From Escherichia coli (lineage in GTDB: Bacteria > Pseudomonadota > Gammaproteobacteria > Enterobacterales > Enterobacteriaceae), in NCBI RefSeq assembly GCF_044324875.1, contig NZ_CP172185.1: 64,000 bases of DNA; one strand, written 5' to 3'. Of the stretch, positions 26,468 to 52,293 are shown one piece after another; within the stretch, counting starts at the first letter, position 1; each line of letters opens with the position of its first letter. Below the pieces are notes generated by a model. It was given only the letters and a program-made list of their open reading frames with translations, was not told where the DNA came from and searched no databases. Position numbers and translations under genes: made by a program.

Positions 26468-26497
26468 GAAAAGCCAACCTGCGGGTTGGCTTTTTTA
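26468..26497. terminator. Bidirectional rho-independent terminator between fur and chiQ
   Basis: aagccaacc-tgcg-ggttggctt stem followed by tttttt. Confidence 0.7.
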
Positions 26498-26536
26498 TAC
26501 ACGGGAAATAAGAAAAGCGAGAGTTACAGCTCTCAC

Positions 26537-28319: not shown

Positions 28320-28674
28320 GGGTTAATCCTCTTTGACGTATAAATTGCTGCACCAAAGGTGAACAGCGAAAAAAATAAAAATTAAAAAAGTAGCGTTGAG
28401 AAAAGTCTCGCTGACTACAGGAACAGACTATTTTTCGCGACGCGAATTATCAATCTCTTTCTGTAACCAGAATGTAAGAACATGAGCAACCGCACATATT
28501 TTGATGATTTTTGTTACAGGGCTTAAGTTTGCGGTTGAAAGGCTTGCAGAAGAATAAAAGCGTGAATTTCCAGCAAGATGAAAGCGGTTACATTTTATTT
28601 AATTATGTTTTGTTATTTTAAATTTATTTTATGGATAAATTGCGAAGCGGAATTAATTCGCGAAGAAAAGCAGA

Positions 28675-28897: not shown

Positions 28898-30562
28898 TTA
28901 CTCGCCTACTTTCGCCCAGGTATCACGCAGCCCAACGGTGCGGTTAAATACCGGTTTTTCCGCCGTAGAATGGCGGCTATCGAGGCAGAAATAACCTTCA
29001 CGCTCAAACTGGAATGCTTTACCCGCTACCGCGTCTTTCAGAGACGGTTCAGCAAAGCCCTGTTTGATCACCAGCGATTCCGGGTTAATCACCGACAGGA
29101 AATCATCCGCAGCACCAGGGTTCGGCACGCTGAAAAGACGGTCGTACAGGCGGATTTCAACCGGCAGCGCATGTGCCGCGCTCACCCAGTGAATAACGCC
29201 TTTCACTTTACGACCATCTGCCGGATCCTTGCTTAAGGTGTCGGCGTCATAAGTACAGAAGATGGTGGTGATATTGCCTTCGGCATCTTTCTCCACGCGT
29301 TCAGCCTTAATGACGTAAGCATTACGCAGACGCACTTCTTTACCCAGCACCAGACGTTTGTACTGCTTGTTAGCTTCTTCGCGGAAATCGGCGCGGTCGA
29401 TCCAAATCTCACCGCTAAACGGCACCTGACGGCTACCCATTTCCGGTTTGTTCGGATGGTTCGGCATGGTGACCATTTCGCCTTCGCCCTGATAGTTTTC
29501 GATAACCAGTTTCACCGGATCGATAACCGCCATTGCGCGCGGCGCATTTTCGTTGAGATCTTCACGGATGCAGGATTCCAGCGACGCCATCTCAATGGTG
29601 TTGTCCTGCTTGGTCACGCCGATGCGTTTGCAGAACTCACGAATAGAAGCCGCAGTGTAACCACGACGACGCAGACCGGAAATGGTCGGCATACGCGGGT
29701 CATCCCAGCCTTCAACGTGCTTGTCGGTCACCAGCAGGTTCAGCTTACGCTTGGACATCACGGTGTATTCCAGATTCAGGCGCGAGAATTCGTACTGGCG
29801 CGGGTGAACAGGAATGGTGATGTTGTCCAGTACCCAGTCGTACAGACGACGGTTGTCCTGGAACTCAAGCGTACACAGAGAGTGCGTAATACCTTCCAGC
29901 GCATCGCTGATGCAATGGGTGAAGTCGTACATCGGGTAGATGCACCACTTGTTGCCAGTCTGGTGGTGTTCAGCAAATTTAATGCGGTACAGCACCGGAT
30001 CGCGCATTACGATAAATGGCGACGCCATGTCGATTTTCGCACGCAGGCAGGCTTTACCTTCTTCAAAACCACCGGTACGCATTTTTTCGAACAGCGCCAG
30101 GTTCTCTTCAACGCTGCGGTCGCGGTACGGGCTGTTTTTACCCGGCTGCGTCAGGGTGCCGCGGTATTCGCGGATCTGTTCCGGTGTCAGTTCATCAACG
30201 TACGCCAGGCCTTTATTGATCAGTTCGATCGCATAGGCGTGGAGCTGATCAAAATAATCGGAGGAGTAACGGACGTTACCAGACCAGTGAAAACCTAACC
30301 ACTCAACGTCGTTTTTGATCGACTCAACATACTCGATATCTTCTTTTACCGGGTTAGTGTCGTCGAAACGCAGGTTGCACTGGCCTTTATAGTCCTGGGC
30401 GATCCCGAAGTTCAGGCAGATAGATTTCGCATGGCCAATATGCAGATAGCCATTCGGCTCCGGCGGGAAACGGGTGTGTACTGTGGTGTGCTTACCACTG
30501 GCCAGATCTTCATCGATGATCTGACGAATAAAGTTAGTCGGGCGGGCTTCTGCCTCACTCAT
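28898..30562 (-). CDS. glnS: Glutaminyl-tRNA synthetase
   Basis: 554 aa; class I aaRS HIGH motif (HIGH) and KMSKS-like motif (VMSKR). Confidence 0.95.
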
Positions 30563-30764: not shown

Positions 30765-32711
30765 TTACTTTTTGATTTCATACAGCGGCGTTTGACCCGC
30801 CACGACATGGCCCTGAGCTTTAATGATCAAGCCACTGAAATCGTCGATATTGCTGCAAACCACCGGGCTAATCATCGAGCGGGCGTTAGCGTTCAGGTAA
30901 TCCAGATCCATTTCCAGAATCGGTTGCCCTGCGCTTACCTGCGCGCCCTCTTCCACCAGACGTTTAAAGCCTTTACCTTCCAGCGCTACGGTGTCGATAC
31001 CCATATGGACGACGATCTCCGCGCCTTTTTCGGTTTCCAGGCAGAACGCGTGGTTGGTATTGAAGATTTTCACGATTGTCCCTGCGGCTGGTGATACGAC
31101 GATTTTATCTGTCGGTTTCACCGCCACACCGTCACCCACCGCTTTGCTGGCGAATGCTTCGTCAGGAACCTGATCCAGTGCCACAACATCACCGGTAATC
31201 GGCGATACCAGCTCCGCGATAGACACCGCGTTTGGTACAGCCTGCGGTTTTGCTACAGGAGCGGCAGTTGCCGGAGTTGCTTCAGCTGACGCAGCGGCTA
31301 CCGGACCACGGGCAACAACTTTCTTCATTGCATCGCCAATGGATTCCGCTTTCGCGCCAACAATCACCTGAATAGTCTGTTTGTTCAGTTTCACTACCCC
31401 AGAAGCACCCAGCCGTTTACACATCGCATCGTTGACGCGAGCCGAGTCAACCACGGTCAGGCGCAGACGAGTAATACAGGCGTCAATTGCTTTCAGGTTG
31501 TCAGTACCGCCAACCGCAGCAATATAGTTGGTCGCCAGTTGAGTCAGACCTTCTTCCGTGTTGCTGTTGGCTTCTTCAGTAACGATCTCGTCTTCTTTAT
31601 CTTCACGGCCCGGCGTTTTCAGGTTGAACATACGGATAACCAAACTGAACACCACGAAGTAGATAGCGAAGAAGACAACACCCATCACCAGCAGCATCCA
31701 GACGTTCTGGCTGGCGGCCGGCAGGTTATACATCAACGCGTAGTCGATAGCCCCCGCAGAGAAGGAGAAGCCCGCGTGGATACCCAGCAGCGTTGCCACA
31801 AACAGGCTGATACCGGTCAGCAGTGCGTGCAGGAGGTACAGCAGCGGCGCAAGGAACATGAACAGGAATTCCAGCGGCTCAGTCACACCGGTCAGGAACG
31901 CAGTAACAGCAACAGAAAGCAGCATACCGCCAACCATCGGACGACGCTCTTTCGGTGCTGCAAAGTACATCGCCAGCGCCGCACCCGGCAGACCGAACAT
32001 CATGATCGGGAAGAAGCCGGACATGAACATCCCCGCGGTGCCGTCACCGGCATAGAAGCGGTTAATGTCGCCGTGGAAAACCGTACCCGCCGCGTTGGTG
32101 AATTCACCAATCTGGAACCAGGCGATGGTGTTCAGTACCTGATGCAGACCGGTTGGGATCAGCAGACGGTTGATGAAACCAAAGATACCGGAACCCAGCG
32201 CGCCCGCAGAAACGATCCACTCGCCGCCTGCATGGATAGCGTGCTGTACCGGCGGCCAGACGTAACCAAAAATGGCCGCCAGCACCAGGCAGAAGAAGCC
32301 GGTGGCAATCGGCACAAAGCGTTTGCCGCCGAAGAAGCTCAGGAAGTCAGGCAGTTTAATATCGGACCAACGGTTATAGGCTGCGCCACCAACCAGACCG
32401 GTAATGATACCCGCCAGTACACCCATGTTAATTTCTGGGTTGATGGTCACCATCGCTTTGGTTAACACAAAGTAACCTACCGCACCCGCCAGCGCCGCCG
32501 CACCCGCGCTGTCTTTCGACCAGCTGGATGCCACACCGATGGCGAAGATTAATGCGAGGTTATCAAAAATCGCACCGCCCGCCTGGGCAATAAACGCAAC
32601 GTTAAGTAAATCTGGCTGACCGAATCGCAGCAACAGCGCCGCCACCGGCAGCACCGCGATAGGGAGCTGTAACGCCCTACCGAGTCGCTGGAAAAAACCT
32701 AAAATATTCAT
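30765..32711 (-). CDS. nagE: PTS N-acetylglucosamine transporter EIICBA
   Basis: 648 aa; EIIC membrane domain with EIIB and EIIA domains at the C-terminus. Confidence 0.95.
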   Translation of the reverse strand: MNILGFFQRLGRALQLPIAVLPVAALLLRFGQPDLLNVAFIAQAGGAIFDNLALIFAIGVASSWSKDSAGAAALAGAVGYFVLTKAMVTINPEINMGVLAGIITGLVGGAAYNRWSDIKLPDFLSFFGGKRFVPIATGFFCLVLAAIFGYVWPPVQHAIHAGGEWIVSAGALGSGIFGFINRLLIPTGLHQVLNTIAWFQIGEFTNAAGTVFHGDINRFYAGDGTAGMFMSGFFPIMMFGLPGAALAMYFAAPKERRPMVGGMLLSVAVTAFLTGVTEPLEFLFMFLAPLLYLLHALLTGISLFVATLLGIHAGFSFSAGAIDYALMYNLPAASQNVWMLLVMGVVFFAIYFVVFSLVIRMFNLKTPGREDKEDEIVTEEANSNTEEGLTQLATNYIAAVGGTDNLKAIDACITRLRLTVVDSARVNDAMCKRLGASGVVKLNKQTIQVIVGAKAESIGDAMKKVVARGPVAAASAEATPATAAPVAKPQAVPNAVSIAELVSPITGDVVALDQVPDEAFASKAVGDGVAVKPTDKIVVSPAAGTIVKIFNTNHAFCLETEKGAEIVVHMGIDTVALEGKGFKRLVEEGAQVSAGQPILEMDLDYLNANARSMISPVVCSNIDDFSGLIIKAQGHVVAGQTPLYEIKK

Positions 32712-32832
32712 CTTATTCCCCCTACGAGAACCCTATTTGGCTCGTTTAAAGCCGTATTTTTATTTTGCTGCAAATTGTACTGCCGATGTTCTGTAATCAG
32801 ATTGTTAGATCATCTGCTACAGAGTGTGTGAA

Positions 32833-32950
32833 AATTTAATTCGTATCGCAAATTAAAAGCGTGTCTTTTGTGAGTTTTGTCACCAAATATCGTTATCATC
32901 ACTCCCTTTTACTGGCTAAACCAGAAAACTTATTTTATCATTCAAAAAAT
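32833..32950. promoter_or_regulatory. Divergent nagE / nagBACD control region with two NagC-operator candidates and a CRP site
   Basis: Palindrome tttaattcgtatcgcaaattaaa (32833-32857); CRP-like TGTGA-N6-TCACC (32869-32884); cttattttatcattcaaaaaat (32929-32950) near the nagB start. Confidence 0.55.
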
Positions 32951-33043
32951 CAGGTCGGATTGACGCCTGTCTGCGCAAATCCAGGTTACGCTTAAAGATG
33001 CCTAATCCGCCAACGGCTTACATTTTACTTATTGAGGTGAATA

Positions 33044-35052
<2,009 letters not shown>

Positions 35053-35060
35053 GAGAAAGT

Positions 35061-36281
35061 ATGACACCAGGCGGACAAGCTCAGATAGGTAATGTTGATC
35101 TCGTAAAACAGCTTAACAGCGCGGCGGTTTATCGCCTGATTGACCAGTATGGGCCAATCTCGCGGATTCAGATTGCCGAGCAAAGCCAGCTTGCCCCCGC
35201 CAGCGTAACCAAAATTACGCGTCAGCTTATCGAACGCGGGCTGATCAAAGAAGTTGATCAGCAGGCCTCCACCGGGGGCCGCCGCGCTATCTCTATCGTC
35301 ACCGAAACCCGCAATTTCCACGCAATCGGTGTACGGCTTGGTCGTCACGACGCCACCATTACTCTGTTCGATCTCAGTAGCAAAGTGCTGGCAGAAGAAC
35401 ATTACCCGCTGCCGGAACGTACCCAGCAGACGCTGGAACATGCCCTGCTGAATGCCATTGCTCAGTTTATTGATAGCTACCAGCGCAAGCTGCGCGAGCT
35501 GATTGCTATTTCCGTGATCCTGCCAGGGCTTGTTGACCCGGACAGCGGCAAAATTCATTACATGCCGCATATTCAGGTAGAAAACTGGGGGCTGGTAGAA
35601 GCACTGGAAGAGCGTTTTAAAGTGACCTGTTTTGTCGGCCACGATATCCGTAGTCTGGCGCTGGCAGAGCACTACTTCGGTGCAAGTCAGGATTGCGAAG
35701 ACTCCATTTTAGTGCGTGTCCATCGCGGGACCGGGGCAGGGATTATCTCTAACGGGCGCATTTTTATTGGCCGCAACGGTAACGTCGGTGAAATTGGCCA
35801 TATTCAGGTCGAACCGCTGGGTGAACGCTGCCACTGCGGCAACTTTGGCTGCCTGGAAACTATTGCTGCCAACGCTGCTATTGAACAACGGGTGTTGAAT
35901 CTGTTAAAGCAGGGCTACCAGAGCCGCGTGCCGCTGGACGACTGCACCATAAAAACTATCTGCAAAGCTGCGAACAAAGGCGATAGCCTGGCGTCGGAAG
36001 TGATTGAGTATGTGGGTCGTCATCTGGGCAAAACCATCGCCATTGCGATCAACTTATTTAATCCGCAAAAAATTGTTATTGCCGGTGAAATCACCGAAGC
36101 CGATAAAGTGCTGCTCCCTGCTATTGAAAGCTGCATTAATACCCAGGCGCTGAAGGCGTTTCGTACTAATCTGCCGGTGGTACGTTCTGAGCTGGATCAC
36201 CGCTCGGCAATCGGCGCTTTTGCGCTGGTAAAACGCGCCATGCTCAACGGTATTTTGCTCCAGCATTTGCTGGAAAATTAA
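35061..36281 (+). CDS. nagC: NagC transcriptional regulator (ROK family)
   Basis: 406 aa; N-terminal HTH plus ROK sugar-kinase-like domain with CxCGxxGC motif. Confidence 0.9.
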   Translation: MTPGGQAQIGNVDLVKQLNSAAVYRLIDQYGPISRIQIAEQSQLAPASVTKITRQLIERGLIKEVDQQASTGGRRAISIVTETRNFHAIGVRLGRHDATITLFDLSSKVLAEEHYPLPERTQQTLEHALLNAIAQFIDSYQRKLRELIAISVILPGLVDPDSGKIHYMPHIQVENWGLVEALEERFKVTCFVGHDIRSLALAEHYFGASQDCEDSILVRVHRGTGAGIISNGRIFIGRNGNVGEIGHIQVEPLGERCHCGNFGCLETIAANAAIEQRVLNLLKQGYQSRVPLDDCTIKTICKAANKGDSLASEVIEYVGRHLGKTIAIAINLFNPQKIVIAGEITEADKVLLPAIESCINTQALKAFRTNLPVVRSELDHRSAIGAFALVKRAMLNGILLQHLLEN

Positions 36282-36328: not shown

Positions 36329-37082
36329 ATGACCATTAAAAATGTAATTTGCGATATCGACGGCGTGCTGATGCACGATAACGTCGCCGTACCGGGTGCA
36401 GCGGAATTTTTGCACGGGATTATGGATAAAGGCCTGCCGCTGGTGTTGCTGACCAACTATCCTTCGCAGACCGGGCAAGATCTGGCGAACCGCTTTGCCA
36501 CTGCCGGTGTCGATGTACCTGACAGCGTGTTTTATACCTCTGCGATGGCGACCGCCGATTTCCTGCGTCGCCAGGAAGGCAAGAAAGCGTATGTGGTGGG
36601 CGAAGGCGCACTGATTCATGAACTGTACAAAGCCGGTTTCACTATTACCGATGTGAACCCTGATTTTGTGATTGTTGGCGAAACGCGTTCCTACAAACTG
36701 GGACATGATGCATAAAGCAGCCTATTTCGTCGCTAACGGTGCACGTTTTATCGCCACCAACCCGGACACCCACGGGCGCGGTTTTTATCCGGCGTGTGGT
36801 GCGCTGTGTGCGGGGATCGAAAAAATCTCCGGACGTAAACCGTTCTATGTTGGTAAGCCGAGTCCGTGGATCATCCGCGCAGCATTAAACAAAATGCAGG
36901 CGCATTCGGAAGAAACGGTGATTGTCGGCGATAACCTGCGTACCGATATTCTGGCGGGCTTCCAGGCCGGTCTGGAGACGATTCTGGTACTCTCCGGCGT
37001 TTCGTCGCTCGACGATATCGACAGTATGCCATTCCGCCCCAGCTGGATTTACCCATCGGTCGCCGAAATTGACGTTATCTGA
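36329..37082 (+). pseudogene. nagD: HAD-family UMP phosphatase NagD/UmpH, interrupted by a +1 frameshift
   Basis: Two overlapping ORFs (36329..36715 and 36672..37082) cover the N- and C-terminal halves of one HAD protein; the frame changes in an AAA run at about 36695-36697. Confidence 0.7.
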
Positions 37083-41235: not shown

Positions 41236-41312
41236 GGCTACGTAGCTCAGTTGGTTAGAGCACATCACTCATAATGATGGGGTCACAGGTTCGAATCCCG
41301 TCGTAGCCACCA
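41236..41312 (+). tRNA. metT: tRNA-Met (elongator, anticodon CAU)
   Basis: 77-nt cloverleaf ggctacgtagctcag...ccacca with anticodon loop ctCATaa. Confidence 0.9.
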
Positions 41313-41321
41313 TCTTTTTTT

Positions 41322-41406
41322 GCGGGAGTGGCGAAATTGGTAGACGCACCAGATTTAGGTTCTGGCACCGCAAGGTGTGCGAGTTCAAGTCTCGCCTCCC
41401 GCACCA
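41322..41406 (+). tRNA. leuW: tRNA-Leu (anticodon UAG)
   Basis: 85-nt class II tRNA gcgggagtggcgaaattggtagac... with long variable arm; anticodon TAG. Confidence 0.9.
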
Positions 41407-41429
41407 TTCACCAGAAAGCGTTGTACGGA

Positions 41430-41504
41430 TGGGGTATCGCCAAGCGGTAAGGCACCGGTTTTTGATACCGGCATTCCCTGGTTCGAATCCAGGTACCCCA
41501 GCCA
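41430..41504 (+). tRNA. glnU: tRNA-Gln (anticodon UUG)
   Basis: 75-nt tggggtatcgccaagcggtaaggcaccggtttTTGata... Confidence 0.9.
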
Positions 41505-41519
41505 TCGAAGAAACAATCT

Positions 41520-41596
41520 GGCTACGTAGCTCAGTTGGTTAGAGCACATCACTCATAATGATGGGGTCACAGGTTCGAATCCCGTCGTAGCCACCA
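41520..41596 (+). tRNA. metU: tRNA-Met (elongator, anticodon CAU), second copy
   Basis: Identical in sequence to the first tRNA-Met. Confidence 0.9.
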
Positions 41597-41644
41597 AATT
41601 CTGAATGTGTCGAATGCGTTCGGCAAATTCACAAACCAATTTGT

Positions 41645-41719
41645 TGGGGTATCGCCAAGCGGTAAGGCACCGGATTCTGATTCCGGCATTCCGAGGTTCG
41701 AATCCTCGTACCCCAGCCA
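41645..41719 (+). tRNA. glnV: tRNA-Gln (anticodon CUG)
   Basis: 75-nt tggggtatcgccaagcggtaaggcaccggattCTGatt... Confidence 0.9.
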
Positions 41720-51215: not shown

Positions 51216-52124
51216 ATGCAATTACGTAAACCTGCCACAGCAATCCTGGCCCTGGCGCTTTCCGCAGGACTGGCACAGGCAGATGACGCCGCCCCGGCAG
51301 CGGGCAGTACGCTGGACAAAATCGCCAAAAACGGTGTGATTGTCGTCGGTCACCGTGAATCTTCAGTACCTTTCTCTTATTACGACAATCAGCAAAAAGT
51401 GGTGGGTTACTCGCAGGATTACTCCAACGCCATTGTTGAAGCAGTGAAAAAGAAACTCAACAAACCGGACTTGCAGGTGAAACTGATTCCGATCACCTCA
51501 CAAAACCGTATTCCTCTGCTGCAAAACGGCACTTTCGATTTTGAATGTGGTTCTACCACCAATAACGTCGAACGCCAGAAACAGGCGGCTTTCTCTGACA
51601 CTATTTTCGTGGTCGGTACGCGCCTGCTGACCAAAAAGGGCGGCGATATCAAAGATTTTGCCGACCTGAAAGGCAAAGCCGTAGTCGTCACTTCCGGCAC
51701 TACCTCTGAAGTTTTGCTCAACAAATTGAATGAAGAGCAAAAAATGAATATGCGCATCATCAGCGCCAAAGATCACGGTGACTCTTTCCGCACCCTGGAA
51801 AGCGGTCGTGCTGTTGCCTTTATGATGGATGACGCTCTGCTGGCAGGTGAACGTGCGAAAGCGAAGAAACCGGACAACTGGGAAATCGTCGGCAAGCCGC
51901 AGTCTCAGGAAGCCTACGGTTGTATGTTGCGTAAAGATGATCCGCAGTTCAAAAAGCTGATGGATGACACCATCGCGCAGGTGCAGACCTCCGGTGAAGC
52001 GGAAAAATGGTTTGATAAGTGGTTCAAAAATCCCATTCCGCCGAAAAACCTGAACATGAATTTCGAGCTGTCAGACGAAATGAAAGCACTGTTCAAAGAA
52101 CCGAATGATAAGGCACTGAACTAA
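51216..52124 (+). CDS. gltI: Glutamate/aspartate ABC transporter periplasmic binding protein
   Basis: ORF 51141..52124; start MQLRKPATAILALALSAGLAQA (signal peptide) gives 302 aa. Confidence 0.9.
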   Translation: MQLRKPATAILALALSAGLAQADDAAPAAGSTLDKIAKNGVIVVGHRESSVPFSYYDNQQKVVGYSQDYSNAIVEAVKKKLNKPDLQVKLIPITSQNRIPLLQNGTFDFECGSTTNNVERQKQAAFSDTIFVVGTRLLTKKGGDIKDFADLKGKAVVVTSGTTSEVLLNKLNEEQKMNMRIISAKDHGDSFRTLESGRAVAFMMDDALLAGERAKAKKPDNWEIVGKPQSQEAYGCMLRKDDPQFKKLMDDTIAQVQTSGEAEKWFDKWFKNPIPPKNLNMNFELSDEMKALFKEPNDKALN

Positions 52125-52281
52125 TTACAAGAACCAGGGGCGGAAATTCCAGCCCTCTCGATTGTTACGTAGCACGGACAGACTATACGCCTGATGGTCG
52201 TTCCCCATCGGGCCTGAAAACCGCAATACGCTGGGTAACAATCTTCGAGGGTAGCAGTTAACGCTGCTACCCTCTTTTTTC
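52125..52281 (+). ncRNA. sroC: Candidate sRNA SroC, processed from the gltI-gltJ intergenic region
   Basis: Intergenic stretch ending in hairpin gagggtagcagttaacgctgctaccctc plus ttttttc (52248-52281); position matches where SroC is described. Confidence 0.45.
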
Positions 52282-52293
52282 TGGAGTAGATTT

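Follow-up and report, generated by a model that had tools for sequence, protein, structure and literature searches.

The DNA between the divergent nagE and nagB genes in our 64-kb window (the whole stretch of E. coli chromosome that was analysed, 64,000 nucleotides) is almost certainly the classical nagE/nagBACD control region, at which NagC would repress through a DNA loop, GlcNAc-6-P would release the repressor, and cAMP-CRP would activate transcription. We favor this reading because both operators are the published operators, both rank near the top of a scan with an independent matrix, their spacing is conserved across species, and NagC is intact; none of the results speaks against it. What was observed directly is which sites and genes are present, where they lie, how they are spaced and how well they are conserved. 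The control region is already known in detail, and the copy in the window is intact and wild type.

Gene content and integrity of the nag locus

The nagE gene (minus strand) and the nagB-nagA-nagC genes (plus strand, from 33044) diverge from a 332-bp intergenic interval (32712..33043). Gene identities were assigned from the ORF listing and NCBIfam equivalog models, and all four nag genes were matched over their full length. The results showed that nagE (30765..32711, minus strand) encodes a GlcNAc-specific PTS enzyme IIABC of 648 aa (NF007608 equivalog, 1448 bits, full length) with 4 amino-acid differences from the K-12 protein, while nagB (33044..33844, plus strand) encodes a glucosamine-6-phosphate deaminase of 266 aa (NF001685, 627 bits) with none. 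The GlcNAc-6-P deacetylase gene nagA (33904..35052, plus strand; 382 aa; NF008371, 745 bits) differs from K-12 by 1 amino acid, and nagC (35061..36281, plus strand; 406 aa; NF047937 equivalog, 719 bits), encoding the ROK-family repressor of the two operators, is intact and 100% identical to K-12 NagC. The operator sites are thereby flanked by divergent nagE and nagB-nagA-nagC, with the repressor gene unbroken. On the far side of nagE lies glnS (28898..30562, minus strand; ORF listing and NCBIfam).

The last gene of the nagBACD operon, nagD/umpH (36329..37082, plus strand), is frameshifted, its ORF being split into 36329..36715 and 36672..37082. Alignment to K-12 revealed one additional A at an AA run near 36693..36695 (TCCTACAAACTGGG compared to TCCTACAACTGGG in K-12), and this 1-bp insertion puts the sequence out of frame beyond about codon 121. 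A 93-nt query was matched in 5422 complete E. coli genomes, at best over 92/93 positions, and in none of them with the insertion. Either the mutation is private to this genome or the additional A is a sequencing error in the homopolymer. Elsewhere in the window, the tRNA cluster after asnB (41236..41719) carries five genes (Met, Leu, Gln-UUG, Met, Gln-CUG) compared to seven in K-12, one copy of each tRNA-Gln pair being missing, and the Rfam sRNA family sroC gave a full-length match at 52120..52282 (plus strand, 174.8 bits) that is unrelated to the nag region.

A sequence-only reading of this DNA had called the interval the nagE/nagBACD divergent control region, which was borne out by the NCBIfam gene identities and by annotated E. 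coli matches. A 361-nt query covering the nagE/nagB intergenic DNA was matched in 5424 of 5426 complete E. coli genomes, several of them at 100% identity, and the annotated features under the match were nagB and nagE. The 136-bp core was 98.5–100% identical in every sampled E. coli record; together with the presence of the region in nearly all genomes, this agrees with the claim that it is a conserved regulatory region. Alignment to the K-12 nag region, suggested by the same reading as a check, showed that MG1655 differs at 3 single intergenic bases (32748, 32858 and 32897), none of them within a site. At 32748, the window has A and K-12 has C; this base belongs to the loop of a small nagE-leader hairpin. 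At 32858, the same exchange (A, C in K-12) affects the base adjoining the nagE operator on its outside, which is freely variable among species, and at 32897 a C replaces the K-12 T within the spacer between the CRP site and the nagB operator. The strand antisense to the nagE leader also carries a terminator-like hairpin (32738..32754).

Identification of the two NagC operators

The operators of NagC and its paralog Mlc are quasi-palindromes whose sole invariant positions are TT and AA at ±5,6 from the central base; at ±11, C or G marks NagC sites of high affinity and A/T marks Mlc sites (PMC4288165, Bréchemier-Baey et al.). Ten experimentally known NagC operators are listed in Table 1 of PMC3098098 (Oberto 2010), and we compared the window with them. 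The nagE operator, BoxE (TTTAATTCGTATCGCAAATTAAA, a 23-bp quasi-palindrome at 32835..32857, centre 32846), overlaps the predicted nagE -35 and is the exact reverse complement (23/23) of the published nagE operator TTTAATTTGCGATACGAATTAAA. The strong NagC operator of nagB, BoxB (CTTATTTTATCATTCAAAAAATC, 32929..32951, centre 32940), overlaps the predicted nagB -10 and start site and is identical at 23/23 positions to the published nagB operator. The paired NagC-type operators proposed from the sequence are thus base for base the characterised nag operators, and the divergence from these that would have spoken against the proposal was absent from the comparison with Table 1. The interval originally given for the region (32833–32950) contains all three elements, apart from the last base of BoxB at 32951, which falls outside it.

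Both operators had been described as AT-rich palindromes. The first half of that description applies to both (A+T content 78% in BoxE and 83% in BoxB); the second fits BoxE, which is symmetric at 8/11 half-site positions, and not BoxB, a poor palindrome with only 5/11. The diagnostic bases are in place, namely TT at -6/-5 and AA at +5/+6 (T32840, T32841, A32851 and A32852 in BoxE; T32934, T32935, A32945 and A32946 in BoxB), and in both boxes they are invariant in 52/52 aligned sequences from different species. BoxB has C at -11 (32929), the base associated with high-affinity NagC sites, in 49/52 aligned sequences. BoxE has A/T at both ±11 positions, as published, and the A/T character is kept across species. 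PMC4288165 writes these two bases as -11A,+11T and we read them as T and A, a matter of strand labelling that leaves the A/T character unchanged.

We then scored both strands of the 64 kb with a NagC matrix built from 7 published sites outside the window, which makes it independent of the sites being judged. Among 63,978 positions, the nagE operator ranked 2nd and the nagB operator 3rd, behind the operator of chiP. Two non-overlapping matches at the observed scores occurred in 1 of 5000 shuffles of the intergenic region (0.02%). The top-scoring match, at 28429..28451 (minus strand), reproduces the proximal chiP (ybfM) NagC operator exactly as published. About 205 bp upstream of it, a weaker match of 9.55 bits (28634..28656) might be a partner site, and the fourth-best match in the window, CTTTTTTATACACGGGAAATAAG (14.4 bits, 26490..26512), lies about 400 bp past the chiP 3' end.

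Identification of the CRP site

A cAMP-CRP site was located between the two operators, as the sequence-only reading had held. The 22-mer TTTTGTGAGTTTTGTCACCAAA (32866..32887, centre 32876.5) contains the core TGTGAGTTTTGTCACC at 32869..32884, which matches 9/10 core bases and is the sole match with at most 1 mismatch in the 64-kb window; with the operator ranks above, this completes the NagC and CRP scan proposed in that reading. The centre of the site is 30.5 bp from that of BoxE and 63.5 bp from that of BoxB. Shuffles of the 64 kb contained on average 1.86 cores with at most 1 mismatch, and since about 1.9 are expected per 64 kb, the core alone is weak evidence and becomes persuasive only in context. 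Within the 332-bp intergenic region, such a core appeared in 0.68% of 5000 dinucleotide-preserving shuffles. Both nagB and nagE have been listed as CRP targets in incoherent feed-forward loops (PMC6121374).

The expectation of one CRP-like core per 64 kb and the 62% A+T content of the intergenic region would be compatible with chance matches in A+T-rich DNA that have no regulatory role. The probability of this explanation is practically nil: the sites are identical to published operators, local shuffling reproduced the operator pair only once in 5000 trials, and in more than 50 species the footprint stands out sharply, so that conservation and identity to characterised sites together refute it.

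Predicted promoters and proposed mechanism of repression

Core promoter elements could be proposed for both genes. For nagE, the putative -10 is CACACT (32823..32828, minus strand; TACACT in many other genera), which appears on the plus strand as the block AGTGT(G/A) to the left of BoxE. This block, which was not used for anchoring the alignment, is conserved and is a plausible -10. The putative nagE -35, TTGCGA (32846..32851, minus strand), lies inside BoxE, 17 bp upstream of the -10. For nagB, the putative -35 is TGGCTA (32913..32918, plus strand), separated by a 17-bp spacer from the putative -10, TATCAT (32936..32941, plus strand), which lies inside BoxB and whose form TAT.AT is nearly invariant across species. 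The nagB -35 falls in a conserved block, cT.GC.a (32912..32918), which was likewise not used for anchoring and reaches 1.28 bits per column within an otherwise variable spacer.

From these elements, transcription would start near 32815/32816 for nagE and near 32948 for nagB, 133 bp apart, and the CRP site would be centred at about -61.5 for nagE and about -71.5 for nagB. The single CRP site lies between the two operators, and on the predicted starts it could serve both promoters. These positions agree with the start sites and CRP positions reportedly given by Plumbridge & Kolb in 1991. A literature search for mapped start sites or CAP positions returned nothing usable. A generic sigma-70 scan called neither the nagE nor the nagB promoter, as expected for weak, activator-dependent promoters; the promoter-like site that it did call, at 33017..33045, was dismissed as irrelevant.

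For NagC and CRP binding, looping and induction by GlcNAc-6-P, we draw on the literature. NagC represses nagE-BACD (PMC2806358), nagE-B requires two sites and looping (PMC5401889), and looping repression of nagE uses the strong nagB operator (PMC4288165). The A/T at ±11 of the wild-type nagE operator has been called 'unusual', and this operator depends on the nagB operator by way of a DNA loop (PMC4288165). The inducer that releases NagC is GlcNAc-6-P (PMC4505101). The fit to NagC looping repression suggested by the sequence-only reading is accordingly supported by PMC4288165 and PMC5401889.

From centre to centre, BoxE and BoxB are separated by 94 bp, or about nine turns of the helix, placing them on the same face of the DNA, each overlapping one promoter. 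In the absence of amino sugar, NagC would occupy BoxE, over the nagE -35, and BoxB, over the nagB -10 and start; with the operator centres about nine turns apart, the bound NagC proteins would touch and the intervening DNA would be looped out. Such a loop would repress both divergent promoters together. BoxE is probably intrinsically weak because of its A/T at ±11, and it would be occupied only through cooperation with the strong BoxB. When NagE imports GlcNAc, the resulting GlcNAc-6-P would release NagC from the DNA, and cAMP-CRP, occupying its one site within the loop, would then activate both promoters from upstream positions, presumably by class-I-type activation at each.

The A/T at ±11 of BoxE, kept across species, is the mark of an Mlc site, and BoxE might on this account really be an Mlc operator, with nagE mainly under the glucose regulator Mlc and not NagC. 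We regard this as highly improbable. In published work, deletion of mlc is reported to be without effect on nagE expression, while deletion of nagC derepresses nagE. The fixed 94-bp partnership of BoxE with a C(-11) NagC operator, found across 61 loci, fits NagC cooperativity. In addition, cross-regulation does not occur at physiological protein levels, and with the nagB operator present, NagC is the preferred regulator of nagE (PMC4288165).

Conservation of operator spacing across species

We scanned genomes with a NagB query, one genome per species, and obtained 80 loci from Escherichia to Vibrio, Aeromonas and Photobacterium, of which 79 were usable. The best two NagC-matrix matches upstream of nagB were 94 bp apart in 51/79 loci and 93 bp apart in 10/79. 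The 61 loci with 93/94-bp spacing belonged to Enterobacterales, Aeromonas, Photobacterium, Grimontia, Enterovibrio, Salinivibrio and one Vibrio, and in 56 of them a CRP core (≤2 mismatches) lay at the same distance from the operator on the nagE side. Other spacings were found in 18 loci, mostly from Vibrio, Photobacterium and related genomes, and for most of these 18, nothing resembling nagE was detected upstream of nagB.

We aligned 52 distinct sequences (median pairwise identity 47%) without gaps, with the operator pair as anchor, and information content was averaged over each element. Anchoring on both NagC matches inflates operator conservation, so the values for the nagE operator (1.55 bits per column) and the nagB operator (1.50 bits per column) are upper-leaning figures; the CRP site and the nagB -35 did not serve as anchors. 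The CRP 22-mer averaged 1.33 bits per column, with 1.84 and 1.72 in its half-sites and 0.70 in the central six bases, compared to 0.38–0.42 in the spacers and 0.14–0.20 in the outer flanks. The best-conserved stretch of the whole region was the CGCAAATTAA half of BoxE.

If a loop depends on helical phase, the spacing should be fixed and the sequence of the spacer free to vary, as is seen here, and, judged from the alignment, selection acts strongly on spacing and phasing but not on spacer sequence. This bears on the possibility that the two operators are independent, each occluding its own promoter with no loop between them. Steric repression of this kind is conceivable, since the core promoter elements of each gene are overlapped by its own operator, and yet we consider it very unlikely: independent sites would not need a spacing held at 93–94 bp while the spacer drifts, and NagC does not repress from a lone wild-type nagE operator, which needs the nagB operator via looping (PMC4288165, PMC5401889). 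The cross-species footprint lends the looping model support at the level of sequence.

The nagE genes divergent from nagB fell into two lineages that are 45% identical over 391 aa (for example, 2-1174 on the minus strand of locus L008 compared to 31539..32711 on the minus strand of the window). Proteins of the E. coli type start with MNILGFFQRLG and those of the other with VSILGYLQKVG; both lineages scored best against TIGR01998 (GlcNAc-specific PTS IIBC), and 2/3 partial proteins were above its cutoff. Their distribution was patchy among close relatives, differing between Enterobacter cloacae and E. asburiae and between two Cedecea species, and one locus labelled E. coli strain SCPM-O-B-8794 (L003) combined an E. 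coli nagB and leader with the other nagE type. The NagC-CRP-NagC control region was kept behind both lineages. The 93–94 bp spacing and the CRP offset have been maintained over three Gammaproteobacteria orders, even with a nagE lineage of 45% identity.

Conserved blocks in the nagB leader

Inside the coordinates of the control region itself nothing novel remains. Just downstream, the nagB 5' leader (32948..33043, about 96 nt) contains three blocks that are kept across Enterobacterales in otherwise drifting sequence. Block 1 (ACGGATTG, about 32956..32963, about +9 to +16) contains CGGATTG at 32957..32963. Block 2 has the form TTAC-N-CTTA, here TTACGCTTA (32986..32994, about +39 to +47); it is nearly invariant in Escherichia, Citrobacter, Enterobacter, Yersinia, Serratia and Hafnia, where it stands 58–68 nt ahead of the ATG and about 38–45 nt past the predicted start. 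Block 3 (TCCGCCAAC, also (C)AATCCGCC; about 33002..33015, about +60) contains CTAATCCG at 33002..33009.

Blocks 1 and 3 form an inverted repeat, CTAATCCG being the partner of CGGATTG, with a few compensatory changes and weak covariation. A hand-specified 7-pair helix of the two blocks was 73% paired compared to 28–51% in slid controls, which is suggestive of a structured RNA without establishing one. The single-sequence fold of the leader was unremarkable (z = -0.77). RNAalifold returned no structure for 26 leader sequences and, for 17 Enterobacteriaceae leaders, only a 5-pair long-range helix at -0.3 kcal/mol, which is negligible support. Rfam had no family in the nagE-nagB region.

Two small RNAs were considered as partners of the leader motif and rejected. 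Spot 42 offered only a 5-nt complement, and the 8-nt complement in SgrS (TTAAGCGT, nt 82-89) is inside sgrT, outside the known seed region. Unconstrained duplex energies were no better than those of shuffles (fractions 0.11 and 0.05), and we treat the complementarity as chance. Our literature search found no report linking nagB to an sRNA. In an informal comparison by eye, the leader motif resembled neither the consensus sites of the common regulators Cra, ArcA, IHF, PmrA, CpxR and GntR-type proteins nor a sigma-54 promoter. The three blocks together may be an undescribed cis-regulatory element of nagB, acting as an RNA structure, a target of an sRNA or protein, or a DNA site for another factor, a proposal that we put forward as a long shot. 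If true, it would add an extra control layer to a system thought to be fully described.

Comparison with known systems

The region is among the best-studied bacterial cases of DNA-looping repression combined with CRP activation, and its discovery value is correspondingly small. The earlier reading does show that a real regulatory architecture can be recognised from raw sequence alone. The closest system is the same locus in K-12, the nagE-nagBACD region of Plumbridge & Kolb, in which BoxE, the CRP core and BoxB are base-identical to those in the window, and gene order, NagC and the 94-bp operator spacing are the same. The window differs from K-12 in the three single-base exchanges outside the sites and in the frameshift of nagD/umpH.

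A 23-bp quasi-palindrome with TT/AA at ±5,6 is also present at other NagC targets, namely chbBCARFG, glmUS, fimB and chiP, and NagC binds cooperatively to two sites, as at nagE-nagB, at chbBCARFG, glmUS and fimB. Site spacings and promoter geometry differ from target to target, and galP uses a single site. At glmUS, NagC activates and does not repress (PMC2806358). The operators of the paralogous ROK repressor Mlc (ptsG, manXYZ, malT and mlc) have an operator logo almost indistinguishable from that of NagC, and BoxE shares their A/T at ±11, whereas physiological cross-regulation with nag is reported to be absent (PMC4288165).

Beyond NagC and Mlc, the overall layout of the nag region recurs in other looping systems. 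In the gal, lac, deo and ara loops, two operators are likewise an integral number of helical turns apart, with the site of a DNA-bending activator in or beside the loop. The effector logic of Mlc differs from that of NagC, since Mlc is sequestered by the glucose transporter PtsG. The repressors of the gal, lac, deo and ara loops belong to different families (LacI/GalR, DeoR and AraC), and the nag loop differs from them in silencing two divergent promoters at once.
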